A stretch of 64,000 nucleotides of DNA from an uncultured Azospirillum sp. (GTDB lineage: Bacteria; Pseudomonadota; Alphaproteobacteria; RF32; CAG-239), in the NCBI GenBank assembly GCA_947301965.1, contig CAMYUM010000003.1, forward strand, positions 30,127 through 94,126, given 5' to 3'. Positions 7,167-54,560 of the stretch are shown here, piece after piece. The notes beneath the pieces were generated by a model. That model saw only the letters and a list, made by a program, of their open reading frames with translations, was not told the origin of the DNA and did no database searches. A program made the position numbers and the translations under genes. The number at the start of each line of letters is the position of its first letter. Within the stretch, counting starts at the first letter, position 1.

Positions 7167-7302
7167 TGTCCTCGACATTGCTTAAAGCAATGCTCGTTCC
7201 ACTGCGCTCGTCGGCTAAAGCCGACCGTGATACTTTCGTCTCACTCTCGCTTGTAGTCAAACAGCTTCCCGCTGGTTCGTGTCTTACCGCTTTGCGGTTA
7301 AC

Positions 7303-7337
7303 ATAAAAAAACCGCCATAAAGGCGGTATTTTTTTTA
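7303..7337. terminator. bidirectional rho-independent terminator (A-run, ACCGCC-ataaa-GGCGGT, T-run)
   Basis: stem 7311-7316/7322-7327 flanked by A8 and T10. Confidence 0.7.
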
Positions 7338-11400: not shown

Positions 11401-14400
11401 GGCAAGATTAAGTGTCTCAGCGTTGCCGCCAGATACACCGTTGATGTTAACAGTGCCGTTGGTTGCACCTAAATCATCACTGAGGTTATATGTCGCACCT
11501 TGTTGATTAGCAGTAAAGTTCTTGGTCGTATTAATTGTATCTTGGTTAACCAACTTTAAGGTATCACCCAAAGGACCATCGTCAACTCTGTCTCCTTGAA
11601 CGGTTGTTTCATGATCTTGTATATAACCAATGGAATCATTAGTAGTAGTTGTTGTTGTAAGACCTATAGTTCCGTAATGTTCTATGGTATCTTCTCTATG
11701 CCAACTAGAGAGTTGGTCGTTCCAATTTGTTGTTGCAGTTATTTGATCTGACCCTGTAACGGTTTGTGTAGTTTCAAATAACTTATGTATGTCGCTACCA
11801 CCTAGCTGTGATATAACCGCATCGGATAAAGCGAGCTGTAGGGCAGATCCGGAGGCATTATTTATTATTTGTACTTTATAATTGGCATCTACTCCGGTAA
11901 AGTCTCCGGTGAGGTTCAAATGTGATAGAGTTATGGTGCCGGCAGAATTGTTTGTGGCAGAAATGACATCAGCCTGTTTGCCTGAGGCGTCAAAATCTAT
12001 GGTATAATTTACATTGGCATTACTGTTAAGGTGATTTATTGCATATGTATCATATGAAGACGTGTTGCCGAGATTTATAGAACCGGCAGTAAAGTTAACG
12101 GTGTTGGCATTGGTAAATGTATCCGTGTTAAAAATTAATCCACCGTTACTATCGTTCATAGTTGCATTTGCCATGCCGACGGTTCCATTGATGGTATTAT
12201 TACCGCTTAATGTTAATCCGTAAGCGGCAGTACTTGCGGCAATATTACCATTGAGAATACTGTTTGTAACACCGATTGTAGCAGAACCGTTAGTAACGGT
12301 AGCTATGGCAGAACTTGAATTGACGGTTACGTCATTAAAGTTTAATGCGGTAGCATCATCACCGACTTGAAAACCCTGATGTGAGGCAAGATTAAGTGTC
12401 TCAGCGTTGCCGCCAGATACACCGTTGATGTTAACAGTGCCGTTGGTTGCACCTAAATCATCACTGAGGTTATATGTCGCACCTTGTTGATTAGCAGTAA
12501 AGTTCTTGGTCGTATTAATTGTATCTTGGTTAACCAACTTTAAGGTATCACCCATGTTCTCGTAGGAAGTATCACCGCCTTCTGTTCTGGTAACTGTAAT
12601 GCCAATAGAGTCATCTGTCGTGGTCTTTGTTTTCAGGCCTAGTTGTCCGTAGATTTCTTTATCGGAAATAACGGTTGTTTGATATATTTTGTCCCATGCT
12701 GTTGTGGTAGCAATTGCTTCGTCGGTTGTTGAACCTTCGATCGTTTCTAATAAATGTTCTGAGTCCAGGCCTGATGCAAGTTGCAATTTTAAAGTAGAAT
12801 CGGCATTTCCATTACTAATAATTTGTATTACGTCTTCAGTACTTAAATCTTCGTAATTGCCAATAATATTAATATTCCCAATGGTAATGGTTCCGTGAGA
12901 CTCTGCTGTTGTAGTAATCTTGTCTGCCGTTTTTTCGGTAGCATCAACGTCAATTTTATAGATTAAGCCATTTGAACCTAGCTCAACTGTGTTAATGGTG
13001 TTTGAATCAATATGATCATTAATTTGATTGATTTCTCCGCTATTGTTATCGGTTGTCAGCAAGGCAATTTGATTAAAATTTCCGTAGGTGATGTCGCCAT
13101 TTGTTTGAGTAATTTTACCTAAAATTAATTTAGCACCATTGTATAAATTTACGTTACTGTTAAGTATGTCGTTGTTAAATACATAAGTTCCGCCCTGAAT
13201 GCCGGTTTTGTTGTTAATGTTGATTGTACCTGAAGAATAAAGTCTGCCGCCAAATGAAATTTTTTGCCCCTCGGCAGCGTTTAGTGATATCGTACCGCCA
13301 TCATTGAATATATCACTATAATTTTCGCCGGCTTTGTTGTTATAAAAAACGATATCTCCATCATCACTTGTAGCATCTATAGATATTGTTCCTCGGTTGT
13401 ATATTGCTCCGCCTTTTCCCCCTGCAATATTGCCGAGAAAACTTCCACGGATGCTGCCATATGTGGCGTTACTACCTACATAGATGGCACCACCGGAGCC
13501 ACCGGCTTTGTTGTTAATAAAGTCTCCGATAATGTTATTTATTTTGCTGTTGGTGTTCGTATAGGTATATATTGCTCCGCCATCCTCACCGGCAGTGTTG
13601 GCAATAAAGTCACTGGTAATGGTACCAATAGTGGCACTGTTATGATAGATTGCTCCAGCTTTCCTGAGAGCACTATTACCAATAAAATCACCGGTGATAT
13701 AATTTCTATTTCCTTGTTTTGTATATATTGCACCACCACCATCAGTAGGTTTGGAGGGGGCATCAACTTGCCATAAACCTTCAGATCTGTTACCAATAAA
13801 ATTACCGCGTATTTCATTGATTGTCTGGTCCGTTCCAAGATTTAGCGCGCCGGCATTTTCCTTATATGCTACGTTGCCAATAAAATTGCCAATGACGGAA
13901 GTTATTTTAGTTTTACCACTAATTGCGACAGCTCCGCCTCCATATTTGTGTATGGTAGAATTGTTGATGAAATCACTTTGAATAGTGTCAGTATAGGTGT
14001 GTGCAGAAGTGCTTTTAAGAAATACTGCACCACCTTGACCTGCTTCTTCAATATTAAAAAATAATTTATTATTAACAGCAAGTGTTGCCTCTTCGTCTCC
14101 GCTTCCACTTTCATTTGCGTAACGTGTTTCTGTTTCGGTATAACCAGTGGGCAGAGTATATTGATATATATAGTCTTTGACTGGTGAATCGCCGATGACA
14201 TGTGGTATTTCGAACGAGATTGATCCGGTGGCTGTTGATGTTCCTTCATTCCAAGAAGGATCGGCAGTTCCTGATGTCCAAGATATATTATCAATATCTT
14301 TAAGATTGATGTTGTAATATTGTGTATTACCGCTTCCATCATTGACGGCAAAGTCGTAGCTTTCGGATGTTGCATTAGACCGTTCCCATGCGGTTTCTGC

Positions 14401-14514
14401 TGCCGCTGTTGTCGGTAAGAAAAAGACACCGCAAAGTAAACTGACTGTTGTAGTCAATCTGTGGATTCTTAAGTTTTTTATCGGTTTGTAAGTCAACATT
14501 AGTTTTTCCGTCAC
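8404..14514 (-). CDS. giant autotransporter (2036 aa) with polymorphic-membrane-protein (Pmp)-type GGAI/FxxN repeats, ~330-aa tandem passenger repeats and a C-terminal beta-barrel translocator
   Basis: N-terminal signal (LLCGVFFLPTTAAA); repeated GGAIY/GGAVF + FIGN/FINN motifs; C-terminal ~280 aa ending ...LSLRYAFE with aromatic terminus typical of autotransporter barrels. Confidence 0.8.
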   Translation of the reverse strand: MTEKLMLTYKPIKNLRIHRLTTTVSLLCGVFFLPTTAAAETAWERSNATSESYDFAVNDGSGNTQYYNINLKDIDNISWTSGTADPSWNEGTSTATGSISFEIPHVIGDSPVKDYIYQYTLPTGYTETETRYANESGSGDEEATLAVNNKLFFNIEEAGQGGAVFLKSTSAHTYTDTIQSDFINNSTIHKYGGGAVAISGKTKITSVIGNFIGNVAYKENAGALNLGTDQTINEIRGNFIGNRSEGLWQVDAPSKPTDGGGAIYTKQGNRNYITGDFIGNSALRKAGAIYHNSATIGTITSDFIANTAGEDGGAIYTYTNTNSKINNIIGDFINNKAGGSGGAIYVGSNATYGSIRGSFLGNIAGGKGGAIYNRGTISIDATSDDGDIVFYNNKAGENYSDIFNDGGTISLNAAEGQKISFGGRLYSSGTININNKTGIQGGTYVFNNDILNSNVNLYNGAKLILGKITQTNGDITYGNFNQIALLTTDNNSGEINQINDHIDSNTINTVELGSNGLIYKIDVDATEKTADKITTTAESHGTITIGNINIIGNYEDLSTEDVIQIISNGNADSTLKLQLASGLDSEHLLETIEGSTTDEAIATTTAWDKIYQTTVISDKEIYGQLGLKTKTTTDDSIGITVTRTEGGDTSYENMGDTLKLVNQDTINTTKNFTANQQGATYNLSDDLGATNGTVNINGVSGGNAETLNLASHQGFQVGDDATALNFNDVTVNSSSAIATVTNGSATIGVTNSILNGNIAASTAAYGLTLSGNNTINGTVGMANATMNDSNGGLIFNTDTFTNANTVNFTAGSINLGNTSSYDTYAINHLNSNANVNYTIDFDASGKQADVISATNNSAGTITLSHLNLTGDFTGVDANYKVQIINNASGSALQLALSDAVISQLGGSDIHKLFETTQTVTGSDQITATTNWNDQLSSWHREDTIEHYGTIGLTTTTTTNDSIGYIQDHETTVQGDRVDDGPLGDTLKLVNQDTINTTKNFTANQQGATYNLSDDLGATNGTVNINGVSGGNAETLNLASHQGFQVGDDATALNFNDVTVNSSSAIATVTNGSATIGVTNSILNGTITGDTAFNMTTSGTSQLNGAVTNANITNTGNLTTTAANIADSSITNSSNLYLSGVLAKTIAGTGTTYVNSTLTLNSGAEVAGTLNANSGTITVSNGTITSHDIGAINGNGNLAIDMNLSSSSVDTFNLTNASSGTLTLTSVNILDPSTTSLADDFSVQVLNPATSSTLKLALSSAVQAAFNSTEYIIGTSGATTSTDTIEANTAWNKVYQEHTTTASTDYGKLGLSDDKLSIEVAFSRRDGGTTTDTSLGDTLKLVNNDTTNATKNFTANQQGKTYNVGDDLGDTKGTLNIKGISGGAAETLNLNGHGFQLGEGATALNFDNVTVSGASTIANVTNGSATVGIKDSIINGTITGATAFNMTTSGTNQLNGSVTNANITNTGNLTTKNSTIGNSVVNNGTINLVNTIVNGDITNNGTLNLKTGTALTNAISSTNNNGVINVNNNWTLSNTISGNKINVNNSTLKVGSNYLDNTDTINAKNSKIDIGANTVNLKSMKLDSSSTLSLKINGLEDGQHGLLNITDDMTINSGAKLKATLAQGINYGEVTLIKAGSHNGDFADKDVSHTEEGVDVAENNMYKFIKTKGKFGVFSILQKSTAADVAKEQGARSWVANAAGAWVDEAPFAEGSSGAIAADKLAALAQHDAAGFVHNLKALAPTETAVVQNTVTEQNSILFKTVDSYLRNKQIGLLSSDEFSDVTAWGNPYLSDTKMRTRQNIDGSNSNSRGIIFGLEKELDRAYKFGAGLQIDRTDVDIMSRDIDINSVTGFVYGEYKPCRQFINGIISYGQSNYKEKKYALDDTYNARYDVWVASVASMAGYQFEYFTPEAGFRYYHIKRDRYTDSAAQKVSADNADILRGVISLRFAREIYDIRAEAYLGLTYDFMADKNNTHVYLSNGSGYVVDGDKLRRLGYETSLSFAKSLTENISAAVSYMGTYRSGYQEHTGMLSLRYAFE
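11264..11570. repeat. 307-bp segment identical to 12248-12554 (intragenic tandem repeat unit, period ~984 bp)
   Basis: read directly: identical string ccattgagaatactgtttgtaacaccgattg...ggtatcaccca at both positions. Confidence 0.85.
12248..12554. repeat. second copy of the identical 307-bp segment; a diverged third unit lies at ~10120-10520
   Basis: as above; encodes duplicated DTLKLVNQDTINTTKNFTANQQGATYNLSDD... block. Confidence 0.85.
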
Positions 14515-14604: not shown

Positions 14605-16893
14605 TTATCGTCCGTTGTTTTGGTTTTTGCTTAGTGGCAAAATAGTCTTATTGTCTCTAAGCTGTTGCTCGTCAGGTATGCTGGCAATAAGATTATTGGT
14701 TTTATAAAGCCATTGCTTGAAAGCAGGTATGTTCTCTCGGGGCAAAACATATTGCTTACTTGCGCCAAAGTAAGATAAAATCAAAATTTTTTGGTCTTTT
14801 TGCTTTTCAAGTGTCTGCCAAAGCTGTGATTTTAGGCCGTGATCTGCTACGAAGAAGCTACCATCACCGCGTTTAAGTTTCCACTGGTATATAAATTGTG
14901 CCTTAATGGTGTCTGTCTGTTCAATTTGTCTTCCTTGAACACACTGTTTCTTGGGCCTTGATGGCTTGTCAGCTGTTGTTTTAGGAGCTTTTGTCTTACG
15001 AGGTATGCTCTCACCTTTTTGATAGACTGTAAAACCACCAATTTGATAAAGTTTTTGCTTGAAAGCGGGTATGTTTTCTTTAGGCAGAACAAAAGCGTAT
15101 TGAACCTGAACCAAAAGACCATTGTTTTCTTGTTTTTTGATGGTGTTCCAGAGTTGAGATTTTTGTTTGTAAGAGAGTTTTTTCCCATCGCTTGTGAACA
15201 AACGCCATCCGGCACAAAAGGAAGTTTGTGTAATATCAGTTTCAGTCCTCTGGCGCACATGGGGAGCAGGTTTTTTAGGGAATTTTGTTTTTGAGGCAAT
15301 GATGCCTTTTTCCGTTAAAAGCCATCGTTCAAGTGCAGGAATGTTTTCTTCGGGTAAAACATAAGTTCGGTTATTGCCACTAAAAGCATAAATGAAAAAT
15401 TTGTTACGATTTAAAGATTTAAATTCCTTAAAAAGTGCAGATTTTGCTTTTGTACCCTTAATGGATTGTCCGTCAAGCCCATTTAGGTGCCAGTAGCGGA
15501 ATTGTGTTGTTGAAAGGTCGGTTTCAAGCTTTTGGCGTAATGATAGGGTGTCGTTGAGGATTTTTGTCTCTGATGCAATGATGCCCTTTGCTGTAAGAAG
15601 CCATTGCTGGAAGGCGGGTATATTTTCTTGTGGCAAGACATATTGTTTGTAAGTTTTAGATTTGCCGTGTTTAACTGGGATGAAGAGGTTTTGTTGGTTT
15701 AATAGGCATTCTTCAAAAAGTAAGGATTTGGTTTTATGATTCCAGATAGGGTCATTATTTTTATCTCTTACAAACCAAGATCTGCAAAAGTTGTTCTTAG
15801 TTAAATCAGTTTTAAGCAATTGTCTTAAGGGTTCCAGGGGTTTCTGAGCAATTAACCCTTTTTGTTTGATAAGCCATTGCTGAAAAGCGGGTATATTTTC
15901 TTGAGGTAAAACAATAACAGGATGTGCTGAAGAAACACAGACAAATAGATTTGGATTTTTGGATTTAACTTCTTCAAAGAGTGCGATTTTAGTTTCGTAG
16001 TTTAGGACTTTGCCTTTTTCAGACATTATCAGCCAAGAGGTAGAAAATTGTGATTTGGTGATATCGGTATTAAGTTTTGCTCTAACGGATTTTAGAGGCT
16101 CTTGAGCTATAATATGTTTTTTTTGCAAAAGCCAATCCTTAAAGAAATGAATGTTCTCCTGAGGTAAAATAAAAGATGTTTTTCCATGTGACGGAACCAT
16201 GATGAATAGGTCTTTGTGTTTTGAAGATTTAAACTCGTTCCAAAGAGAAGTTCTGATTGGTCCTGGCACAGATTTGCCATTTTCGTTAGTTAGAATCCAA
16301 TGAGTATAAAACTGCAGATTGGTCAAATCAGTTTCAAGCACTTTTCGTTGAGATTTTCTTGTTTTTGAAGCTGTAATGCCTTTTTCTTCAATAAGCCATT
16401 GTTGAAATGCAGAGATGTTTTCCTGTGGTAAGGCGAGGGCGGAAAATCCGGTAGTTGAAGCGGTGACGAAAAGTTCTTGATGTGAATTTCGAAAAGTGTT
16501 CCATAGATTGATTCGATCTTGAATGGTGGGGGCTTTGCCGTTTTTGTCTCTTAAATGCCAAGAATGCACAAAATTGCTTATTAAAAGATCCGTATCGAGC
16601 TTGGGTCTTTGTGACTTGGCCAAAATAAGGCCTTTTTCTGCCCAAAGGCGTTTTTTAAAAGCAGGAATGTTTTCTTCGGGTAAAACGTGAATGAAGTGAT
16701 ATTTTGCTGAAAGCTGAATAAAGAGTTCGGGGGCAAATAACACAAGTTCATCCCAAATCTTTAGTTTTTGTTTTCGGTCAATAGCTTTGCCGTTTTGGTC
16801 CTTCAGACCGCATGCTTTGAAGAACTTGTTTCGGGTTAAATCGGTATCAAGTTTGGTGCGTTCATTTTGAGTAAAAGGAGATGTCTCTTCCAT
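14605..16893 (-). CDS. tandem-repeat protein (762 aa; ~8 units of ~88 aa with VLPQENIPAFQQWL...KGIIA and KLxTDLTxxxF..W motifs); function unknown
   Basis: self-similarity obvious in the translation; no signal peptide; Lys-rich. Confidence 0.75.
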   Translation of the reverse strand: MEETSPFTQNERTKLDTDLTRNKFFKACGLKDQNGKAIDRKQKLKIWDELVLFAPELFIQLSAKYHFIHVLPEENIPAFKKRLWAEKGLILAKSQRPKLDTDLLISNFVHSWHLRDKNGKAPTIQDRINLWNTFRNSHQELFVTASTTGFSALALPQENISAFQQWLIEEKGITASKTRKSQRKVLETDLTNLQFYTHWILTNENGKSVPGPIRTSLWNEFKSSKHKDLFIMVPSHGKTSFILPQENIHFFKDWLLQKKHIIAQEPLKSVRAKLNTDITKSQFSTSWLIMSEKGKVLNYETKIALFEEVKSKNPNLFVCVSSAHPVIVLPQENIPAFQQWLIKQKGLIAQKPLEPLRQLLKTDLTKNNFCRSWFVRDKNNDPIWNHKTKSLLFEECLLNQQNLFIPVKHGKSKTYKQYVLPQENIPAFQQWLLTAKGIIASETKILNDTLSLRQKLETDLSTTQFRYWHLNGLDGQSIKGTKAKSALFKEFKSLNRNKFFIYAFSGNNRTYVLPEENIPALERWLLTEKGIIASKTKFPKKPAPHVRQRTETDITQTSFCAGWRLFTSDGKKLSYKQKSQLWNTIKKQENNGLLVQVQYAFVLPKENIPAFKQKLYQIGGFTVYQKGESIPRKTKAPKTTADKPSRPKKQCVQGRQIEQTDTIKAQFIYQWKLKRGDGSFFVADHGLKSQLWQTLEKQKDQKILILSYFGASKQYVLPRENIPAFKQWLYKTNNLIASIPDEQQLRDNKTILPLSKNQNNGR

Positions 16894-29500: not shown

Positions 29501-32413
29501 ATGAGACTAAAACTTACAGGTTGTTTTTTAGCTGCAACATTGGCGGTTAGTTATAATGCTTTCGCTCAATACGGAGGGATTGCAAGTAACCTGTATGAGA
29601 ACGCAAGACGCGGCAATTACGGCGCGATTCAACGTGTTATCGACAGCGGATACTCAATTGATACCACAGATGTCAACGGCAATACGGCTTTGTGCATGGC
29701 TTTGATGCACAGAGATTCTTATGCGTACAGTTTTTTGAGAAAATTCGGGGCTGATTCGCAACATGTTTGCACGAGGTATTTGCAAGGTAATACATATGCG
29801 AGCAGGTATTCGGGACCGGGTTTTGAGTGGAAACCGGCTTACACCGTGGGTGCAGTAGCATTGTTGGGTGGAGCTGGTGTTGCTGCGGCACTTGCCGGCG
29901 GCGGAGGAGGAGGTTCTCATCATTCTTCCGGCGGCGGTTCGGGCGGCGGCGGTGATGACCCCGGCGGCGGCGGTTCCGGTGGCGGTGATGACCCCGGAGG
30001 CGATGAACCAGGTGGCGGTGATGATCCGAGCGGCGGCGGTTCCGGCGGTGAGAGCGGAATTATTTCAGATAAAGAAATTGTTACCCCGTTGAACTCAAGC
30101 TTTTTTGAAACCGACGAATACAAAAAAGGCAATTTTTTAAGCAAAATTAATGCCTCAAAAGCTTATGCGCGTTTTTACGGTTTGGATGAAGACGGGAATA
30201 TGGCAACCCAACTTAATCGTGTGATGGTCGGAGTGATTGATACCGGTATTTATGCGGATAATGCCGATTTTGCAACCACAATTACGAGCGGCTTTAACTC
30301 TGACTATGGTCCGTGTTTGAACGGTGATAATAAGAACTGCTGGAAATATTCGGGCGGAAAAGTTTATTTTTCGGAAGACAGCAACCAGTATTATACAATG
30401 TCGCAGGCCGATTATAATACATGGGTAGCGGAATATAGCAGCAATTATAATTGGGATAATAATAAAGATAATTTCTTCCCGGAAAGAGGAACCAGCAATA
30501 TGCATGGAACTCACGTTGCCGGTATTATCGGAGCCGATAAAAACGGTTCGGGTATGCACGGAGTTGCTTTTTCAAACGCGGTACTCTTGGGCGGAAGATG
30601 GGATTTTATGTCACGTCCGGGAGATGTTATATCTAAAATGGTTGATGAAGGCGCCCAAGTCATTAATATGAGTTTCGGGCTTGATGCCAGAGTATATCCG
30701 GCCACAGATTTGAATGATGATTATTACAGTCAATACAGAACCAGCACAAATAATTATATTGTATCGGGGGTTTTAAAAGCAGCAAATAATAATGTGGTTA
30801 TGGTTATGTCGGCAGGAAACGAATCGCAGACACAACCGGGGCTGTATAACGGTATGCCCAATCTAACGGCGTTAAACGGGGCTTTGAACAATTTGTTTGT
30901 TACGGTAGTGGCGACGGGATCAGACGGATCAATTGCAAATTATTCCAATGCGTGCGGTGTTGCCAAAAACTACTGTATTGCCGCACCGGGTGGAGATTCT
31001 TCGAGCAAAATTTGGTCAACCGGTACTTATGATGTGACAATGTACGGTTCGTACGGAACATCAATGGCGGCACCGGTGGTTTCAGGCAGTATTGCATTGC
31101 TGATGGGGGCATATCCTTATTTGACACCGCAACAGATTGTGTCGTTAATTTTTGAAAGTGCCAATAAGAGCGGTATATATGCTAATAAGGACCTTTATGG
31201 TAATGGTATGTTGGATTTAGCTGCGGCAACGAATCCACAGGGATATTTGGGTACGATTTCATCAACAGATGCAGATTCAAGTGTGGTTAACATAAATTCA
31301 AGCAGAGTTGTTGTTCCGTCAGTATTTAAGGAAGCCCTGCAGAATAATATGCCAAAAACTATGGCGGTGTTTGATAAATATAAACGCCCGTTTAATATCA
31401 AATTTGATTCAATGGTTCAAACAACCCACAGCGGGCATAAGAACTTTAAGAACGATTTGTATAATTTCTCTCGTCATCAGCCGAAAAAGACGGTCAGCGA
31501 TGACAGTTTTGCTTTTGCTTATGCGCCTTCTTCGTATAGCAATAATGACGGAGGCATAGGTATTGCAGATGTTTCGTACAAAGATGATAATGCCGAGACA
31601 TCATTCTTCTTTGCCGAAAACAGTTTATACAGCTCCGGCGATTATAATGATAAAGCTATGTATAATCCTTATTTGGCAATGAACGATGCTTATGGTGTTG
31701 CTCATAAAATGTATTGGGATGATAATCTCAGCTTTAAGATGAGCTTTATGACCGGTGAAAACGGGTTGTATGACGGCGATCGTAATTATCATGATTATAA
31801 CTTTGATAATCGCTCCTATGCGTTTAATACAGAGGTTTCGTACCAAGTTACACCTAAGTTTAATGTAACGGCAATGACCGGTATGTTGGCTGAAGATGAT
31901 GCTTTGCTTGGTATGAACGGACGCGGTGCGTTATCAATCGGTGACAGTAATACTTATTATGCCGGGCTGATGTTGGAATGGCAGCCGTTTGAAAATTGGA
32001 GTTTCGGCGGAGCTTATTATCATGGTTGGACCGATGCATCAAAAGTTTATGGCAGTATGATTAGCACATCGCAACTGATGAGCGACAGTTTTGCTTTGGA
32101 CGGACACTATAATATTAATAAGACCGATGTTGTCGGTTTGCAAATATCTTCTCCGTTGAGGATTTATAACGGTCATGCGGATTTTGATATTGCAACCGGG
32201 CGTGATAATTATTCTAATGAAGTTTATCGTGAAAAAATCAGGGCTAACCTGAAACCGTCTTCAAGAGAATATAAGTTTGCGCTGTATCATAACCGTGAAA
32301 TAACCGACAGCGTGTTGTTCAAGAGTGAATTTGCAGTTCGCTTGCACCCAGAACATCAAAAAGATGCCGAAACCGATTATCGAGCAATGTTCGGTTTGTC
32401 GTGGGCATTCTGA
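29501..32413 (+). CDS. subtilisin-like (S8) serine protease autotransporter with N-terminal ANK-like repeat and Gly/Asp/Pro-rich linker
   Basis: signal peptide; catalytic triad motifs VGVIDTG (D), HGTHVAGII (H), GTSMAAPVVSG (S); C-terminal ~300-aa beta-barrel ending FGLSWAF. Confidence 0.85.
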   Translation: MRLKLTGCFLAATLAVSYNAFAQYGGIASNLYENARRGNYGAIQRVIDSGYSIDTTDVNGNTALCMALMHRDSYAYSFLRKFGADSQHVCTRYLQGNTYASRYSGPGFEWKPAYTVGAVALLGGAGVAAALAGGGGGGSHHSSGGGSGGGGDDPGGGGSGGGDDPGGDEPGGGDDPSGGGSGGESGIISDKEIVTPLNSSFFETDEYKKGNFLSKINASKAYARFYGLDEDGNMATQLNRVMVGVIDTGIYADNADFATTITSGFNSDYGPCLNGDNKNCWKYSGGKVYFSEDSNQYYTMSQADYNTWVAEYSSNYNWDNNKDNFFPERGTSNMHGTHVAGIIGADKNGSGMHGVAFSNAVLLGGRWDFMSRPGDVISKMVDEGAQVINMSFGLDARVYPATDLNDDYYSQYRTSTNNYIVSGVLKAANNNVVMVMSAGNESQTQPGLYNGMPNLTALNGALNNLFVTVVATGSDGSIANYSNACGVAKNYCIAAPGGDSSSKIWSTGTYDVTMYGSYGTSMAAPVVSGSIALLMGAYPYLTPQQIVSLIFESANKSGIYANKDLYGNGMLDLAAATNPQGYLGTISSTDADSSVVNINSSRVVVPSVFKEALQNNMPKTMAVFDKYKRPFNIKFDSMVQTTHSGHKNFKNDLYNFSRHQPKKTVSDDSFAFAYAPSSYSNNDGGIGIADVSYKDDNAETSFFFAENSLYSSGDYNDKAMYNPYLAMNDAYGVAHKMYWDDNLSFKMSFMTGENGLYDGDRNYHDYNFDNRSYAFNTEVSYQVTPKFNVTAMTGMLAEDDALLGMNGRGALSIGDSNTYYAGLMLEWQPFENWSFGGAYYHGWTDASKVYGSMISTSQLMSDSFALDGHYNINKTDVVGLQISSPLRIYNGHADFDIATGRDNYSNEVYREKIRANLKPSSREYKFALYHNREITDSVLFKSEFAVRLHPEHQKDAETDYRAMFGLSWAF
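29880..30060 (+). repeat. simple-sequence region (GGCGGCGGTGATGACCCCGG-type units) encoding GGGSGGGGDDPGGGG linker
   Basis: three tandem copies of an imperfect ~30-nt unit (ggcggcggtgatgaccccgg-like, read directly from sequence). Confidence 0.7.
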
Positions 32414-33640: not shown

Positions 33641-33702
33641 AGCCTATAGTTTACGCCATTAATGGGAGCAAGAGTCAAGAGTTTTTGCCAAATGTTGAGC
33701 AT

Positions 33703-33733
33703 AAAAAAACCTCCTTGAAGAAGGAGGTTTTTT
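33703..33733. terminator. bidirectional terminator (CCTCCTT-gaag-AAGGAGG + T6)
   Basis: A7 / 7-bp stem / T6, downstream of the OMP gene stop. Confidence 0.7.
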
Positions 33734-38385: not shown

Positions 38386-41070
38386 ATGAGTAAATGGGTA
38401 TATACATTTGGAAACGGCAAAGCCGAGGGCGATGCCACCATGCGTAATCTCCTTGGCGGTAAAGGTGCTAACCTTGCAGAAATGAACAAGGTTGGATTGC
38501 CGGTTCCTCCGGGATTTACGGTTACTACTGAAGTTTGTACATATTATTATAATAACAATCATACCTATCCGGCTGATTTGAAAGAACAGGTAAAAGAGGC
38601 TGTTGCCGGTGTTGAGAAAATTATGGGCAAAAAGTTTGCTGATGCTAACAATCCTTTGCTTTTCTCAGTTCGTTCCGGTGCAAGAGTTTCGATGCCGGGT
38701 ATGATGGATACCGTTTTGAACCTCGGTTTGAATGATGAAACAGTTAAAGCTTTGGCTAAAGCTTCGGGTTCAGAGCGTTTTGCGTATGACTCATATCGTC
38801 GTTTTCTCCAAATGTTTTCTGACGTGGTTTTGGGTGCTGACCTGGAATTGTATGAAGAAGCTTTGGAAAATATGAAAAAGTCAAAAGGTTATAAATCTGA
38901 TACAGATTTGACCGCTGATGACTTGAAAGCATTGGTTGCTCAATATAAAGAAATCGGTCAGAAAATCGGTAAAGTTGTTCCGCAAGATCCATGGGATCAA
39001 TTGTGGGCAGGTATCGGTGCCGTATTCGGTTCTTGGATGGTTGATCGTGCCATTACTTATCGTAAATTGAACAATATTCCAGGTGACTGGGGTACAGCCG
39101 TTAACGTTCAAACCATGGTATTCGGTAACGCCGGTGATGACTGTGCAACAGGTGTTTGCTTCTCACGTGACCCGGCAACTGGTGAAAACGTATATTACGG
39201 TGAATATTTGGTTAATGCTCAAGGTGAAGACGTTGTGGCCGGTATTCGTACTCCGCAACCGATGGGCTCAAAAGGTGACGGAACTTCTTTGGAAGAAAAA
39301 TGGCCGCACCTGTATAAAGAATTGGTTGATGTTCGTAACAACCTCGAAGCTCACTACAAAGATATGCAGGATATGGAATTTACCATTGAGCACGGCAAAC
39401 TCTGGATGTTGCAATGCCGTAACGGTAAACGTACAGCACAAGCCGCTGTTCGTATGGCCGTAGAAATGGTTGAAGAAGGCCTGCTTAATAAAGAAGAAGC
39501 TATTATGCGCGTTGGTGCTGATCAGTTGGATCAGTTATTGCACCCGATGCTTGACCCGAAAGCCAAGAAAAATGTTATTGCTACAGGTCTTCCGGCTTCT
39601 CCCGGTGCTGCCGTAGGTCGCGCCGTATTTTGTGCCGAAGATGCTGAAGCTTGGGCTGCCAAAGGTGAAAAAGTTATCTTGATTCGTAACGAAACTTCTC
39701 CTGAAGATATCGGCGGTATGCATGCTTCTCAAGGTGTTATTACTGCTCGCGGCGGTATGACTTCTCACGCAGCCGTTGTTGCTCGCGGTATGGGAACTCC
39801 TTGCGTTTCCGGTTCTCATGATATTGTTATAAGCTATAAAGACAAAACCATGAGCACCAAGTCAGGTGTTGTTATTAAAGAAGGTGATTGGGTATCTTTG
39901 GATGGTGCCAAAGGTCAAATCATTGAAGGTCAGGTTCCGACAGTTAAAGCCGATACCAACAGCGGTAACTTCGGTAAATTGATGGGTTGGGTTGATGAAA
40001 TCCGTACAATGGAAGTTCGTGCTAATGCCGAAACTCCTAAAGATGCTCAACAAGCCCGTGATTTTGGCGCTCAAGGTATTGGTTTGGCTCGTACCGAACA
40101 CATGTTCTTTGATGCCGATCGTATTCCTAATATGAGAGCAATGATTTTGTCTGACAACGAAGAAGGTCGCCGTGCGGCTTTGGCTCGCTTGTTGCCTTAT
40201 CAAAAACAAGACTTTAAAGACTTGTTCAAGATTATGGATGGTCTGCCGGTTGTTATTCGTTTGCTCGATCCTCCGCTTCATGAGTTCTTGCCGCATACTG
40301 ATGCTGAAATGCAAGAATTGGCAGATAAAATGGGAATGACTTTGCAACAAGTTAAGAATCGTTCCGATGCTTTGCACGAAGCTAATCCGATGCTCGGTCA
40401 CCGCGGTTGCCGTTTGCCGATTACCTATCCGGAAATTTGCGAAATGCAAACCCGTGCTATTTTGGAAGCTGCTATTGAGAGCGCCGATGCCGGTGTTAAG
40501 GTAGTACCGGAAATCGAAGTTCCTTTGACAGGTTCTAAGAAAGAACTCGATATTGTTAAAAACATTATTGATACTACTGCCGAGAAAGTTTTTGCTGAAA
40601 AAGGCAAAAAGGTTAAGTATGAAGTCGGTTCAATGATTGAACTGCCTCGCGCAGCTTTGAAAGCTGATGAGTTGGCTCAGTCTGCCGAGTTCTTCGGCTT
40701 CGGTACCAATGACCTGACTCAGACGACTCTTGGTATGAGCCGTGATGATACAGGTGCCATCTTGGATGAATATCGCGCTCGCGGTGTTTATGTTGCCGAT
40801 CCGTTTGCTTCAATTGACGTTGAAGGTGTCGGTATGTTGGTTAAGATGGCTTGCCACAAAGCTCGTTCATCGAATCCGAAAATTTGGCTCGGTGTTTGCG
40901 GTGAACACGGTGGTGATCCTGCATCAATCGACTTCTTCCAGACTTGCGGTATGAACTATGTTTCATGCTCACCGTTCCGTGTACCGGTAGCTCGTCTGGC
41001 GGCTGCTCAAGCTGCGGTTCGTCATAAAAATGATAAGCCGGAAGATTGCTGCTGCAAGAAAGCCTGCTAA
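38386..41070 (+). CDS. ppdK: pyruvate, phosphate dikinase
   Basis: full-length match: MSKWVYTFGNGKAEGDATMRNLLGGKGANLAEM..., catalytic His region GGMTSHAAVVARG, C-terminal PEP-utilising TIM barrel; unusual C-terminal EDCCCKKAC tail. Confidence 0.95.
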   Translation: MSKWVYTFGNGKAEGDATMRNLLGGKGANLAEMNKVGLPVPPGFTVTTEVCTYYYNNNHTYPADLKEQVKEAVAGVEKIMGKKFADANNPLLFSVRSGARVSMPGMMDTVLNLGLNDETVKALAKASGSERFAYDSYRRFLQMFSDVVLGADLELYEEALENMKKSKGYKSDTDLTADDLKALVAQYKEIGQKIGKVVPQDPWDQLWAGIGAVFGSWMVDRAITYRKLNNIPGDWGTAVNVQTMVFGNAGDDCATGVCFSRDPATGENVYYGEYLVNAQGEDVVAGIRTPQPMGSKGDGTSLEEKWPHLYKELVDVRNNLEAHYKDMQDMEFTIEHGKLWMLQCRNGKRTAQAAVRMAVEMVEEGLLNKEEAIMRVGADQLDQLLHPMLDPKAKKNVIATGLPASPGAAVGRAVFCAEDAEAWAAKGEKVILIRNETSPEDIGGMHASQGVITARGGMTSHAAVVARGMGTPCVSGSHDIVISYKDKTMSTKSGVVIKEGDWVSLDGAKGQIIEGQVPTVKADTNSGNFGKLMGWVDEIRTMEVRANAETPKDAQQARDFGAQGIGLARTEHMFFDADRIPNMRAMILSDNEEGRRAALARLLPYQKQDFKDLFKIMDGLPVVIRLLDPPLHEFLPHTDAEMQELADKMGMTLQQVKNRSDALHEANPMLGHRGCRLPITYPEICEMQTRAILEAAIESADAGVKVVPEIEVPLTGSKKELDIVKNIIDTTAEKVFAEKGKKVKYEVGSMIELPRAALKADELAQSAEFFGFGTNDLTQTTLGMSRDDTGAILDEYRARGVYVADPFASIDVEGVGMLVKMACHKARSSNPKIWLGVCGEHGGDPASIDFFQTCGMNYVSCSPFRVPVARLAAAQAAVRHKNDKPEDCCCKKAC

Positions 41071-41076
41071 AAAACG

Positions 41077-41197
41077 CATATAACAAGCTCATCTAGAGCT
41101 AAAATTGCGAAAAGGGAAAAATTCATGTACTTCTTTGTACACTGGGATTTTTCCCTTTCTTATTTTGACTCTATCTGAACTGTTTTCTGTGTTTTTT
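41077..41197. repeat. intergenic repeat element copy 1 (~121 bp) with nested hairpins and T-run end
   Basis: ATAACAAGCTCATCTAGAGCTAAAAT...GGGAAAAATTCATGTACTTCTTTGTACACTGGGATTTTTCCC...; 9-bp inverted repeat GGGAAAAAT/ATTTTTCCC enclosing TGTAC..GTACA. Confidence 0.8.
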
Positions 41198-41202
41198 AGG
41201 GT

Positions 41203-41325
41203 ATATATAACAAGCTCATCTAGAGCTAAAATTGTTCAATAAGGAAAAATTCATGTACTTCTTTGTACACTGGAATTTTTCCCTTTCTTATTTTAACTTT
41301 ATCTGAACTGTTCTCTACGTTTTTT
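41203..41325. repeat. intergenic repeat element copy 2 (tandem to copy 1, ~90% identical)
   Basis: direct read; period ~126 bp. Confidence 0.8.
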
Positions 41326-41591
41326 GTACGCTCCTGTCGCTAAAGGAGTTTTTTCTTATTATTAGCCTCATAAATCACCTTCTAAGGAAAGTGCATATAT
41401 ATCTGTAGAAAAAATTTCTTTGCTCATTTTAACCATATATTAATGATTGTCGGAGGTTTTGGGGCAATAAAATATAAGAAAAAAGTTATATTTTTTATTT
41501 TTTTGTAATTTTGTTATTGAAAAATTAATTCTTATTGCTTAATTTAGCTAATGTATATTTATGAATATAAAACCATATATGGAGAAATAAT

Positions 41592-44150: not shown

Positions 44151-46025
44151 ATGATGAAAGCTGGAAAAAACTTGTTATTTTGGATTGCGGCAATAGTAGT
44201 GATTGCGTTGCTCAGCAATTTGGCCGGTGTGAGCAGAGGAACTCCGATGTCACGCGGAAATAATTTGGCTTTTTCCGATTTTATGAATTTTGTTGAGAAT
44301 AAAAATATCGAATCGGTTTCTATTTCCGGTCATGATATTACCGGCAGTATGAGCGATGGCAGTCGTTTTTATACTTATGCTCCTAATGATCCTTCAATGT
44401 TTGAAACTTTACGAAAGTCCGGAGTTAAGGTCGAAGCTAAACCACAGGATAATACGGCAGATACTTTTTGGGGAGTGTTTATTTCGTGGTTCCCGATGAT
44501 TTTGTTGATCGGGGTTTGGATATTTTTTATGCGTCAGGCAAATTCAGGCAACAATAAGGCTATGAGTTTCGGAAAATCACGGGCGAGATTAATTGAAAAT
44601 ACCAAAAAAGTTACTTTTGCCGATGTTGCCGGATGTGACGAATCAAAACAAGAGCTTGAAGAAATAATAGACTTTTTAAAAGACCCGCAAAAATTTCAAC
44701 GTTTGGGCGGAAAAATTCCGAAGGGCGTTTTGTTGGTAGGTCCTCCGGGAACAGGTAAAACTTTGTTGGCAAAAGCAGTTGCCGGCGAAGCAGACGTGCC
44801 GTTCTTCTCAATTTCTGGTTCAGATTTTGTGGAGATGTTTGTCGGTGTGGGTGCATCACGTGTGCGTGATATGTTTGCACAAGCAAAGAAAAATGCACCA
44901 TGCCTGCTGTTTATTGATGAAATTGATGCTGTGGGGCGTCATCGCGGTGCTGGTCTGGGCGGTGGAAATGACGAGCGCGAGCAGACATTAAACCAACTGT
45001 TGGTTGAGATGGATGGTTTTGATGAAAATGAAAATGTAATTCTAATTGCCGCAACTAACCGTCCTGATGTTTTGGATCCGGCCTTATTGCGTCCGGGGCG
45101 TTTTGACCGTCAGGTGGTTGTAACTAATCCGGATTTGAAAGGGCGTGAAGAAATTTTGAAAGTGCACGTCAAAAAAGTTCCGCTGGCTAAAGATGTTAAT
45201 CTTGCAGTTATTGCCCGCGGTACTCCGGGGTTTTCGGGAGCGGATTTGGCTAATTTGGTGAACGAGGCGGCATTGCTTGCAGCGCGTAAAAACAAGCGTA
45301 AAGTTACTTCAAAAGACTTTGATGATGCCAAAGATAAAGTGATGATGGGTAATGAGCGCAAATCAATGGCGATGGATGAGCAAGAAAAAATGCTGACGGC
45401 TTATCACGAAGCCGGACATGCAATATGCTCTCTTAATGTACCGGAAACCGATCCTATTCATAAAGCAACAATTATACCGAGAGGGCGGGCTCTCGGCATG
45501 GTGCAGCAGTTGCCGGAAAAAGATCAATATTCTTACTCGCGGGCAAAGATGCTTTCACGCCTTATTATTACTATGGGCGGACGTGCTGCGGAAGAAATTA
45601 AGTTCGGTTATGATAAAGTAACCAGCGGCGCATCATCAGACATTGCCGCGGCAACCAAATTGGCGCGGGCGATGGTTACCGAATGGGGAATGAGCGACAA
45701 ATTAGGTCCAATTTTGTACGTCGACAACTCTGAAGAAGTCTTTTTGGGTAAGTCTGTTACGCAAAATAAAAATATGAGTGAAGAAACCGCACGTCTGATT
45801 GATGCGGAAATTAAGCGTTTAGTCAGCGAAGCTCACGAATCAGCACTTAAAATTTTGCATGATAAAAAAGACGATTGGGAACACTTGGCTCAGGCCCTGA
45901 TTGAGTATGAAACCTTGAGCGGTGACGAGATAAAAGCTATCTTGCGCGGTGAAGAGATTTTGAAGAATAAAGATGCTCCGGTTCCTGAGGAGAAAAAGAC
46001 TAAGAGTTCAGTCCCCGAAGTATGA
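44151..46025 (+). CDS. ftsH: ATP-dependent zinc metalloprotease FtsH
   Basis: two N-terminal TM, Walker [18 protein letters not shown] zinc motif. Confidence 0.95.
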
Positions 46026-46033
46026 TAAAAAAG

Positions 46034-46100
46034 TGCGTATAACAGCTCATCTAGAGCTAAAATCGCAAAAAGGAAAAATTCATGTACTTCTTTGTACACT
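46034..46100. repeat. intergenic repeat element copy 3 (5' ~68 bp of the 41.1-kb element)
   Basis: GTGCGTATAACAGCTCATCTAGAGCTAAAATCGCAAAAAGGAAAAATTCATGTACTTCTTTGTACACTG matches copies 1/2 then diverges. Confidence 0.75.
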
Positions 46101-46247
46101 GCGGTGCTTTCGCTCTTGTTTCTTGTTATTTACCTCATTCTCCGAGTTTTTGACAAATGGATAACTAGCACATAAATTTCATTTTTTTATATTTGTTACC
46201 ATTTGTTAGGAATATTTATGTATTATCATATCCGAGGAGATTTTGAT

Positions 46248-52744: not shown

Positions 52745-53635
52745 ATGGCCGAAGAAGAAGAGTTGGATATTGAGTTGAATGATGCCGCGGATAAAGATCA
52801 TGAGGTTGAGGAGATCAATCTTGATGATGTTAAAGATGCCGGGCTTGATGACTTTTTAAAAGAGGTTGATTCTAAAGAAGACCTGCCTGATATAAATTAT
52901 CAGGATGAGGTGGCGCATACCTCTTACAGTGATGATGTTGCCGCTTTGTCAGAGGCAACTGAAGCTGATTTTGCCAATTTGAATCTCAATGACTTTAATG
53001 CAGCTCTTGATTCATATAAAGCGGCAAGGTCCGGAAAAGTGTCGACGGCATCAGTTGCTACGGACGATGTTGCGCAAATTGATGTGCCGACAGATAACGG
53101 TGTTGCGGCAGAAGACGAAGATCCGATAACTTATGAACAGGAGCGGGAGTTTACGGTCGAGGCCGATAATACAGATAAGAAAGAAGAAAGTGAGGTTTCC
53201 GCATCCGCAGCCGAAAATGAAGAATCGAAAGAGGCCGTTGAGGAGCTGCCGATTGAAGAAGAAAGTTTTGATGATTTGCCGGTCATTAAAAACAAAGATG
53301 ATGCCGGACAGGAAATTATGAACTGGTACAGCGGTTCATTGAAGGATAAGACATATAAAATATCGGACAATGATATGCCGGAGTTTTTGGATGGAGACAG
53401 AACTACCCGGGTTATCCATGTTAGTGTTGAGTCTCCGTATGGATGGAATGTGTTTTTTGATAACGGGATGTTTATGAGTTTACGCGATGTGAAGGAATAT
53501 CAGGAGCGTCATGGTGAGTTGCCTTGTCAGGAAGGAAAAATTATTTATGGTGACAAAACCTGTTCGTTTGAACAAATTCTTAAAATTGTGGTGTATGAGC
53601 AACCGCGATATTTTTCGTATCAAGTAAAACAATAA
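52745..53635 (+). CDS. acidic, probably intrinsically disordered protein (N-terminal ~200 aa D/E-rich) with ~100-aa C-terminal folded domain
   Basis: MAEEEELDIELNDAADKDHEVEEINLDD...; no TM/signal. Confidence 0.55.
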   Translation: MAEEEELDIELNDAADKDHEVEEINLDDVKDAGLDDFLKEVDSKEDLPDINYQDEVAHTSYSDDVAALSEATEADFANLNLNDFNAALDSYKAARSGKVSTASVATDDVAQIDVPTDNGVAAEDEDPITYEQEREFTVEADNTDKKEESEVSASAAENEESKEAVEELPIEEESFDDLPVIKNKDDAGQEIMNWYSGSLKDKTYKISDNDMPEFLDGDRTTRVIHVSVESPYGWNVFFDNGMFMSLRDVKEYQERHGELPCQEGKIIYGDKTCSFEQILKIVVYEQPRYFSYQVKQ

Positions 53636-53649
53636 ATGAATTATGATAC

Positions 53650-53682
53650 AAAAAAGACCACCTTTGCGGTGGTCTTTTTTTG
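53650..53682. terminator. bidirectional terminator (AGACCACC-tttgc-GGTGGTCT + T7)
   Basis: perfect 8-bp stem between convergent genes. Confidence 0.8.
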
Positions 53683-53696
53683 TGTATGTTGATAAT

Positions 53697-54560
53697 TTAT
53701 TTGCGGTTGATCGGAAATACCTGAACCCCGTTTGTCGGCTTTGATGCGTCCTCAGAACTCATCGGAGCCTGCATATATTCATCAGCCTTCTTTTGGGCTT
53801 TAGTCTTTTCTTCCGGAGCCACAAAGTTGGCTTTGAGCGGATAGGACATGTTGGGTAAACGCAAAAGCATATACCCGCTTCCGCCACCGTAAGCAGGGCC
53901 GGAAAGACCGATTGAGTAGTAACCGCCGATAAAGCCGTAATCAAGATCAATGTAGTCAACCAGGAACAAGGTTTTAATTGTGGTTGTGCCGATGGTGGTC
54001 ATTTTACATTGATAACCATTGTCTTCCATTACAATATTATCGGTATTTTTGACAAACATGAGGGTGCGATCCGGAGCACAATCCGGGGTTTGCCCGTTGT
54101 AGGTAACATTATAATTGAGTACCAGTTTAATTGATGAAGAGCCTTTGGAAATATGAACATCGCTGATCTTTACATAATCGATGTACATATATGCCGGAGT
54201 AATACCGACAGTAATAGGCAGGGATATATAATTCATGTAGCAGTTGTGACCGCCGGTATCAGCGGTACAAAGCAATGCACGTTGGTTGTTGTTGTTTTGC
54301 ATCAGCTGTACAAGACTGTTGTATATATATTCTTTTGACATGGACAGTTTGAGCGGAGCGCATTGTTTGGCGCGGCAAACAACAATATTACGCGGCATTT
54401 GCAACGGTGTCATATAAACGCTGCGTTTAGTGGCATCAGCACGATTTTGGCTGTCAAAAGGGTCGTTTAATACTTGTTGCAAACTGCGGTTCCAAAAACT
54501 GCAGTTGCTGGCGGTAAACAGGATTAAACCAAACAAGGCAAACGCTTTCAACCTAGACAC
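53697..54560 (-). CDS. secreted/lipo-protein, Cys-rich (287 aa), unknown function
   Basis: signal peptide LFGLILFTASNC; 10+ Cys; Gly-rich GGYYSIGLSGPAYGGGSGY segment. Confidence 0.55.
   Translation of the reverse strand: MSRLKAFALFGLILFTASNCSFWNRSLQQVLNDPFDSQNRADATKRSVYMTPLQMPRNIVVCRAKQCAPLKLSMSKEYIYNSLVQLMQNNNNQRALLCTADTGGHNCYMNYISLPITVGITPAYMYIDYVKISDVHISKGSSSIKLVLNYNVTYNGQTPDCAPDRTLMFVKNTDNIVMEDNGYQCKMTTIGTTTIKTLFLVDYIDLDYGFIGGYYSIGLSGPAYGGGSGYMLLRLPNMSYPLKANFVAPEEKTKAQKKADEYMQAPMSSEDASKPTNGVQVFPINRK

Follow-up and report, generated by a model that had tools for sequence, protein, structure and literature searches.

REPs stabilise the mRNA upstream of them, and Correia elements, RUP/BOX and Rickettsia RPE are short non-coding palindromic insertions which are co-transcribed and may form RNase III-sensitive hairpins. 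A REP unit measures 20-40 nt, has conserved stems and a 5' GTAG and is mobilised by a RAYT; MITEs are characterised by conserved terminal inverted repeats and target-site duplications. The ERIC element (RU-1), about 127 bp long, is an imperfect palindrome built around a conserved central inverted repeat; it is located in transcribed intergenic regions, is non-autonomous, varies in copy number and forms stable stem-loops (PMC2759123). According to the passage in PMC12306157 that cites Liang et al. 2015, REPs located no more than 15 nt from a stop codon cause ribosomes to stall and reduce translation.

Here, we analysed a window of 64 kb, i.e. the whole stretch of DNA under study, for which an earlier note had reported intergenic repeats with nested hairpins and had proposed REP- or RPE-like elements, terminators or sRNA genes. 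These repeats belong to a widespread family of approximately 127-base hairpin repeats, placed at the stop codons of housekeeping genes in uncultured gut and rumen Proteobacteria, which is undescribed within Rfam and the searched literature. The family resembles REP and ERIC, yet at the sequence level it is a member of neither, nor of the classical MITEs. With ERIC it has in common the imperfect palindrome (median 127 nt), the stable fold and the intercistronic positions. However, there is no sequence similarity to ERIC: the apex of the present family finds no match in 5,426 E. coli genomes, nor in viral contigs and PLSDB plasmids, and the ERIC core (GTGAATCCCCAGGAGCTTACAT...) is presumably unrelated to it. 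Moreover, the present family is found in MAGs of Alphaproteobacteria and in one Gammaproteobacteria-like lineage, and it is strictly co-oriented with the upstream gene, whose stop codon it abuts. A match on a Novosphingobium plasmid was dismissed as probably due to chance, as it has no complementary arms.

Like REP/BIME sequences, the present repeats occur as extragenic palindromes both at 3' ends and in intercistronic positions, but here the stop codon lies inside the helix or within 3 nt of it, and the unit of about 127 nt combines free stem sequences with a conserved apex. No RAYT-like gene was seen in the 75 fetched loci with a single IS200-like TnpA query. In contrast to MITEs, the termini are the most variable part of the element, and in contrast to Rickettsia RPE the elements do not insert in frame into genes. 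Presence/absence polymorphism, as in the Correia elements of Neisseria, RUP/BOX and RPE, is observed in the present family too (locus L070 empty, L012 filled). It is the conserved apex with free arms, the strict co-orientation and the stop codon in the helix that set the family apart from REP, ERIC and classical MITEs. With it, a well-defined structured-repeat family is added for gut and rumen Proteobacteria, which are known mainly from MAGs.

Copies in the window and their fold

According to Pfam, the gene order around the repeats is atpF, ppdK, copies A and B, an OmpA/Pal-like gene, a TPR protein gene, tilS, ftsH, copy C and glmM. Exact k-mer counts, repeat finding and MAFFT agree on the three repeats at two loci that had been described earlier, two in tandem after ppdK and one after ftsH. 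Hereby, the 20-mer AGCTCATCTAGAGCTAAAAT (positions 41086, 41213 and 46044) and the 22-mer ATTCATGTACTTCTTTGTACAC (41121, 41249 and 46078) each occur three times in the 64-kb window, also when three mismatches are allowed, while dinucleotide shuffles give zero expected occurrences of either. The same three copies are recovered by repeat finding and MAFFT.

The ppdK gene (38386-41070, plus strand) ends with the stop codon TAA at 41068..41070 and is directly followed by copy A (41071..41197, plus strand), a full type-1 unit scoring 137 bits with covariance model R1. Its apex, TCA-TGTAC-TTCTTT-GTACA-CT (41123..41143, plus strand), consists of a 5-bp stem and a 6-nt loop. Copy B, the second tandem unit (41198..41325, plus strand; apex at 41251..41271, plus strand), scores 106 bits with the covariance model. 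It is followed by a canonical terminator-like hairpin, GCTCCTGTCGCTAAAGGAGT, and a T-run (41330..41355, plus strand), which is probably the real terminator of ppdK; at locus L002 the corresponding hairpin sits between the two copies present there. The third copy, copy C (46030-46152, plus strand), is located 3' of ftsH (44151-46025, plus strand, assigned by Pfam), whose TGA stop codon (46023..46025) lies 4 nt before it. Copy C is composed of a type-1 left arm and apex (46030..46100, plus strand; apex at 46080-46100) and of the right arm of a type-2 unit, GCGGTRCTTTCGCTCTTG...CTCATTCTCCGAGTTTTTG (46101..46152, plus strand).

Scanning the full window with the covariance model yielded no further family member apart from a possible decayed remnant at 41386..41465 (plus strand; nhmmer E = 0.003), a weak match for which the region 41345-41466 scores 12 bits (E = 4.7); L002 carries an intact copy at the corresponding place. 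The region 53609-53726 was rejected as a family member, since this weak match of 21 bits is an ordinary bidirectional terminator between convergent ORFs without the family apex.

A full unit of 127-128 nt is a single long imperfect palindrome that forms one hairpin, in which the left arm ATAACAAGCTCATCTAGAGCTAAAAT... pairs with the right arm ...ATTTTRACTCTATCTGAACTGTT and whose borders are an A-run at the left and a T-run at the right. Fold z-scores amount to -4.7 (plus strand) and -8.2 (minus strand) for copy A and to -4.35 and -6.75 for copy B, whose hairpin is weaker because its left linker stems from another copy type. The inverted repeats that had been named before are present in the sequence, but they do not form separate nested hairpins, as the whole unit is one palindrome. 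Specifically, the proposed AGCTC...GAGCT hairpin finds little support: among 27 homologues it is paired in 74% of cases compared to 70% in shuffles, whereas the competing long-range helix that uses the same bases reaches 94.6%. In copy A, the minimum-free-energy hairpin has its outermost pair 4 nt ahead of the final base of the ppdK stop codon, and the TAA is itself paired inside the basal helix (CTAAAAAAC.CA / TG.GTTTTTTAG). The single-palindrome unit, the stop codon in the basal helix, the apex ORFs of 17-23 codons and the recombinant copy C are features that were absent from the earlier note.

Copy C forms no hairpin (z = -0.3) and has only the left arm and the apex in common with the other copies. 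The complementarity score of its own arms is 22.5, compared to 19.9 with swapped arms. An intact type-2 unit, the source type of its right arm, is present 3' of ftsH in L002 and L047. L001 contains a chimera of the copy C type and L064 the reciprocal chimera, and the copies therefore recombine at the common apex. Copy C is a chimera, recombined from a type-1 left and a type-2 right part, and in our reading inactive. In this reading, copy B would be a tandem duplicate or a recombinant, and copy A an intact element on the ppdK 3' UTR.

In the window copies, an ATG in the apex is preceded by AAGGGA or AAGGA and opens a frame of 17-23 codons. In copy A this is the 17-codon ORF MYFFVHWDFSLSYFDSI (41125..41178, plus strand), with equivalents in copies B (41253-41306) and C (46082-46153) on the same strand. 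Such frames speak for the reading that each repeat is an independent gene, for an sRNA, a peptide of 17-23 residues or a type I toxin, with its own promoter (TAAAAT or TATAAC) and terminator. This reading would also suit the TATAAC/T motif that is common near the left end, and a tandem arrangement is known for some sRNAs. In relatives, however, a TAG or TAA replaces the TGG at codon seven of the apex ORF and cuts it down to 6 codons (L001, L002, L004 and the majority of family members), some copies have ATA or ACG in place of the start codon, and the Shine-Dalgarno sequence is missing in most members. Furthermore, all substitutions in the ORF between copies A and B, and between copy C and L001, are non-synonymous. 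Small-peptide genes (MYFFVHW...) were hence rejected because neither start nor stop codon is conserved among relatives, and a small protein or type I toxin gene because the conservation of frame and start codon fails there. All apex ORFs are judged to be non-coding and should stay uncalled as genes in annotation. Read-through of the ppdK stop codon into the apex ORF, which is in frame in the window, was likewise dismissed, as the distance from stop codon to apex takes all three frames across the family. The promoter scan found no plus-strand promoter inside the elements, nor was a conserved promoter found; the DNA upstream of first copies is unrelated coding sequence, and type 3 lacks the TATAAC motif. 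The sRNA option of the earlier note thus comes out weak, and we consider independent sRNA or peptide genes hardly credible. Just 3' of copy C, a sigma-70-like promoter match (TTGACA-17-TAAATT at 46150-46178), whose -35 hexamer overlaps the T-run ending this copy, is a candidate promoter of glmM.

A structured family with a common apex

We searched genomes with the left-arm 20-mer and metagenomes with the 21-nt apex. The genome scan matched three rumen MAGs, labelled Alphaproteobacteria or Rhodospirillales, in which the element follows ppdK or ftsH. A fourth match, L003 (Megaera), was discarded as a chance occurrence of the 20-mer inside a coding region, which we take to be transposase-like. 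The metagenome scan retrieved 64 apex loci with G+C contents of 31-64%. The expectation that the repeats form a family with more copies is thereby confirmed, and the placement directly 3' of ppdK and ftsH recurs at both loci in relatives. Nearly all apex loci possess arms of about 50 nt. These differ between loci, but the two arms of one element are complementary: their score exceeds that of swapped arms in 57 of the 58 unique instances, with means of 48 and 19.5, respectively. Weak own-arm scores were obtained for the chimeras L001, L010 and window copy C, for L026 and L031, which are probable chance matches, and for L056.

The family comprises at least three subtypes with a common apex and differing basal motifs. 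The apical stem-loop TCA-TGTAC-TTYTTT-GTACA-CT is the best-conserved part, although its invariance is partly built in, as the loci were retrieved by searching with the apex; the termini vary most. About half of the secondary copies, which were retrieved via their arms, carry variant apexes. Hereby, changes in the apex stem are compensated (CGTAG/CTACG, TGTAG/CTACA, CGTAC/GTACG) and the loops are pyrimidine-rich. An alignment of 27 type-1 copies yields a consensus hairpin of 36 pairs, 27 of which show compensatory double changes. In this alignment 93.9% of the cells are paired, a proportion that none of 500 shuffles attains; pairing amounts to 78.9% in the shuffles and to 29-57% in the slid controls. 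The conserved structure that the earlier note had made a point to check is thereby established.

Going by the names of MAG homologues, the group of L006 and L025 from human gut metagenomes belongs to the Alphaproteobacteria. For L012 and L027 (64% GC), the FadB homologues with 87-89% identity are named Gammaproteobacteria, with Xanthomonadales at about 59%, and the synteny leuS-lptE-fadB-fadA is found in the orthologous loci L070 and L074. These Gammaproteobacteria-like FadB relatives indicate that the family crosses classes. In a search of Rfam 15 only tRNAs pass the gathering threshold, the best matches in E-value mode being generic hairpin families far below it, and the apex sequence occurs in no paper of the searched literature. 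The idea that the apex mimics 16S rRNA was abandoned, as only the 8-mer UUGUACAC matches (near position 1400 of the L021 16S rRNA, in what is presumably a universal 16S region; E about 1.4).

In 49 of 59 instances, RNAfold predicts the better fold for the strand antisense to the upstream gene. Counted over whole arms there is no asymmetry, with 205 G.U versus 224 A.C mismatches. Among isolated in-helix mismatches on the sense strand, after de-replication, 27 are G.U and 59 are A.C. This A.C excess is confined to type 1 (8 G.U versus 34 A.C), with other types near parity (19 versus 25), and can probably be traced to a few inherited mismatch positions. In view of the balanced whole-arm count and the restriction of the in-helix excess to type 1, a functional RNA on the minus strand, which the RNAfold bias had brought up, is not claimed here. 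Selection on the sense-strand RNA alone, in turn, predicts more G.U than A.C, and no subtype shows a sense-strand G.U excess. Compensatory changes in a DNA palindrome can also arise by gene conversion from arm to arm without selection on RNA.

By analogy with BIME binding of gyrase or IHF and with integron attC, the repeats might instead act as DNA-level sites, i.e. as a cruciform or bottom-strand hairpin for a recombinase, gyrase or nucleoid protein, or as an origin of cDNA or single-stranded DNA. The better fold of the bottom strand in type 1 would agree with this, as would the apex dyad TGTAC-N6-GTACA, whose sequence is of the type bound by dimeric proteins, and the neighbour change of pal (ppdK in the window, rlmH in L048), which hints at rearrangement at the elements. 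Double-stranded DNA sites, however, need no complementary arms of 50 bp, the strand asymmetry is limited to one subfamily and can probably be traced to a few inherited positions, and attC boxes (RYYYAAC ... GTTRRRY) as well as a cassette or integrase context are absent. Integron attC itself was rejected, since the right end lacks GTTRRRY and the neighbours are the core genes atpF, ppdK, pal, tilS, ftsH and glmM. A role as a DNA-level site therefore seems very unlikely to us.

Stop codons, orientation and transcription

In 35 unique instances, the co-oriented ORF mostly ends 47-55 nt before the apex. Pairing mostly starts at -13 to +3 nt relative to the final stop-codon base, and the hairpins have a median length of 127 nt. 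At its opposite end the element carries the complement of the stop codon, with which the stop codon pairs (TAA/TTA, TAG/CTA or TGA/TCA). About 28 distinct upstream gene contexts show a co-oriented element that starts at the stop codon, and 4 contexts deviate, namely L015, L044 and L019, in which the element does not abut a stop codon, and a reversed copy in a 16S-tRNA-Ile spacer. According to NCBIfam and Pfam, the upstream genes include ppdK, ftsH, fusA, tsf, infB, pnp, nusB, grpE, fabI, gpsA, pfkA, acnA, pheT, holA, rlmH, nadK, an ECF sigma factor gene and mscK-like, fadB-like and macB-like genes. At convergent gene pairs the co-oriented gene is the abutted one in 9 of 9 cases in which only one gene is abutted, and at L017 and L059 both stop codons of the convergent genes lie near the hairpin base. 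The reversed copy is located at 8650-8790 of L021, within an rRNA operon whose 16S rRNA has only about 80% identity to any plasmid-borne 16S.

Intercistronic elements (E) are found in the arrangements fusA-E-tuf-E, infB-E-next gene, fadB-E-fadA and moxR-E-next gene, with no room for a promoter. The many intercistronic copies thus point to an element that is co-transcribed and is not an obligatory terminator. This bears on the possibility that the repeats are unusually long Rho-independent, largely bidirectional terminators, in which A-run, hairpin and T-run stop transcription both ways. Most type-1 and type-2 copies indeed have an A-run before the hairpin and a T-run of T4-T8 after it, and, as with known bidirectional intrinsic terminators, A-tract, hairpin and T-tract directly follow stop codons and are sometimes placed between convergent genes with both stops near the hairpin base (L017, L059). 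In addition, the minus strand folds better, and its U-run overlaps the stop codon. On the other hand, many members are located inside operons 25-60 nt before the next start codon, GC-rich and type-3 members have no T-run, and a separate canonical terminator follows copy B as well as the element of L058. Furthermore, the stem of 45-55 bp differs from that of intrinsic terminators, and so does the apex, which is conserved across genomes of 31-64% GC and is not needed for termination. The terminator option put forward earlier is thereby weakened, and dedicated terminators appear to us a distinctly improbable explanation.

To our judgement, the chances are about even that the family represents a dispersed, once-mobile palindromic repeat of the ERIC/REP kind, which forms a co-transcribed hairpin at mRNA 3' ends and between cistrons and would play a role in mRNA stability or processing. 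Hereby, the element would be transcribed as the end of the upstream mRNA or as intercistronic spacer and would fold into a helix of about 50 bp. This helix could block 3'-to-5' exonucleases and/or serve double-strand-specific RNases, and would so set the stability of the upstream cistron, while copies ending in a U-run may also terminate some transcription. As the helix starts at the stop codon, the last ribosome would leave no unprotected RNA behind, and a terminating ribosome would have to melt the helix base. Through its conserved, orientation-specific apex the element might be contacted by a partner acting in trans, be it an RNA-binding factor of the host or the enzyme responsible for its former mobilisation; a partner protein or mobilising enzyme was not found in the fetched loci.

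In a more far-reaching version, which we consider unlikely, the repeats would be sense-specific 3'-end modules, with the apex read by a trans-acting factor that couples the fate of the mRNA to termination at a stop codon clamped by the basal helix. Were this the case, the family would be a bacterial counterpart of a 3' stem-loop tag, common to many housekeeping genes and spread between proteobacterial classes. The family lends itself to studying, in a natural setting, what a stable helix at the stop codon does to termination, mRNA decay and operon polarity, and it also provides a handle on how palindromic elements choose gene ends.

Insertion, divergence and recombination

All examined relatives have a first copy after ppdK, and the later tandem copies vary. 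The element diverges by 4.8% where four-fold sites of ppdK diverge by 23.8%, and by 9.1% where they diverge by 27.4%; in more distant relatives the element divergence reaches 36-40%, via paired changes. The slower change of the element over short distances speaks for constraint, but it could instead reflect gene conversion among copies.

Evidence on the origin of the elements comes from the fadB-fadA spacer. In the ortholog L070 (89% identity) the fadB stop codon TAA is followed by 11 nt and the ATG of fadA, and in L012 a 150-nt hairpin begins 1 nt after the fadB stop, the C-terminus of the protein being identical to that of L070. The empty site in L070 and the filled orthologous site in L012 thus identify the element as an insertion. 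Many copies read TA|A...T|TA, a pattern that palindrome extension produces as well, the empty and filled sites being too diverged to resolve a TA target duplication. More distant fadB-fadA orthologues have unrelated spacers. In a Gammaproteobacteria-like MAG (L071, 3060-3210), the same spacer contains an unrelated REP-like palindrome (CCCGGA/TCCGGG). With L070 empty, L012 carrying the apex family and L071 another palindrome, this spacer looks like a hot spot for palindromic insertions.

Taken together, the elements were inserted and then duplicated, recombined and lost, and they persist almost only directly after a gene of the same orientation. Close relatives differ in copy number and exhibit truncations, tandem arrays and reciprocal chimeras. 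Such a history is also expected of selfish or neutral palindromic mobile DNA (MITE- or REPIN-like) without host function, in which the hairpin serves only the mobilisation of single-stranded DNA or is kept by gene conversion, and the sites after stop codons are tolerated insertions in compact genomes. The empty site in L070, the unrelated palindrome in L071 and the arrays, truncations and chimeras speak for this reading, and so do the occurrence of the same apex across classes, which suggests horizontal spread, the lack of a G.U excess on the sense strand and the persistence of the broken copy C in the window and in L001. Tolerance alone, however, leaves the strict co-orientation unexplained (9 of 9 convergent cases, about 28 of 32 gene contexts), and likewise the start of the element within a few nt of the stop codon. 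The ends, which are the normal targets of transposases, are the least conserved part and the apex the most conserved. Moreover, no IS200-like transposase was found in the 75 fetched loci with the single query. We therefore regard purely selfish or neutral DNA as possible, yet somewhat unlikely, and retain the co-transcribed hairpin of a once-mobile repeat as our working model.

The pal gene is preceded by rlmH and an element in L048 (7260-7740), and by ppdK and elements in the window (41071-41591); in the genome of L048, the same contig has ppdK with an element at another place (L061). This arrangement points to a rearrangement involving ppdK, rlmH and pal, with the break at the elements. Together with the tandem arrays and reciprocal chimeras, this possible rearrangement makes the elements appear to mark local recombination hot spots.

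Further observations concern the window outside the repeats. The PpdK tail (41020-41067; also in L002, L004, L030, L009 and L061) is variable in length and carries the conserved Cys-rich motif ...CCCKKAC, which reads CCCKKSA or KCCSKCA in more distant relatives; to our knowledge, such a Cys-rich tail is unusual for pyruvate phosphate dikinases. Three ordinary terminators with GC-stem and T-run at 7302-7335, 33700-33733 and 53648-53681 are similar to one another, the last of them belonging to the extended bidirectional terminator at 53609-53726. On the minus strand there are two repetitive ORFs, neither with a Pfam match: one of 2036 aa (8404-14514), made up of long direct repeats (periods of 984 and 1053 nt) that include two copies with 100% identity over 300 nt, and one of 762 aa (14605-16893), composed of 5-6 repeats of a unit of about 270 nt (90 aa). 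Finally, the gene for an S8 subtilase-family protein (29501-32413, plus strand) contains a GGCGGCGG-rich repeat at 29892-30048 with a period of 15-18 nt, which probably codes for a Gly/Asp/Pro-rich linker.
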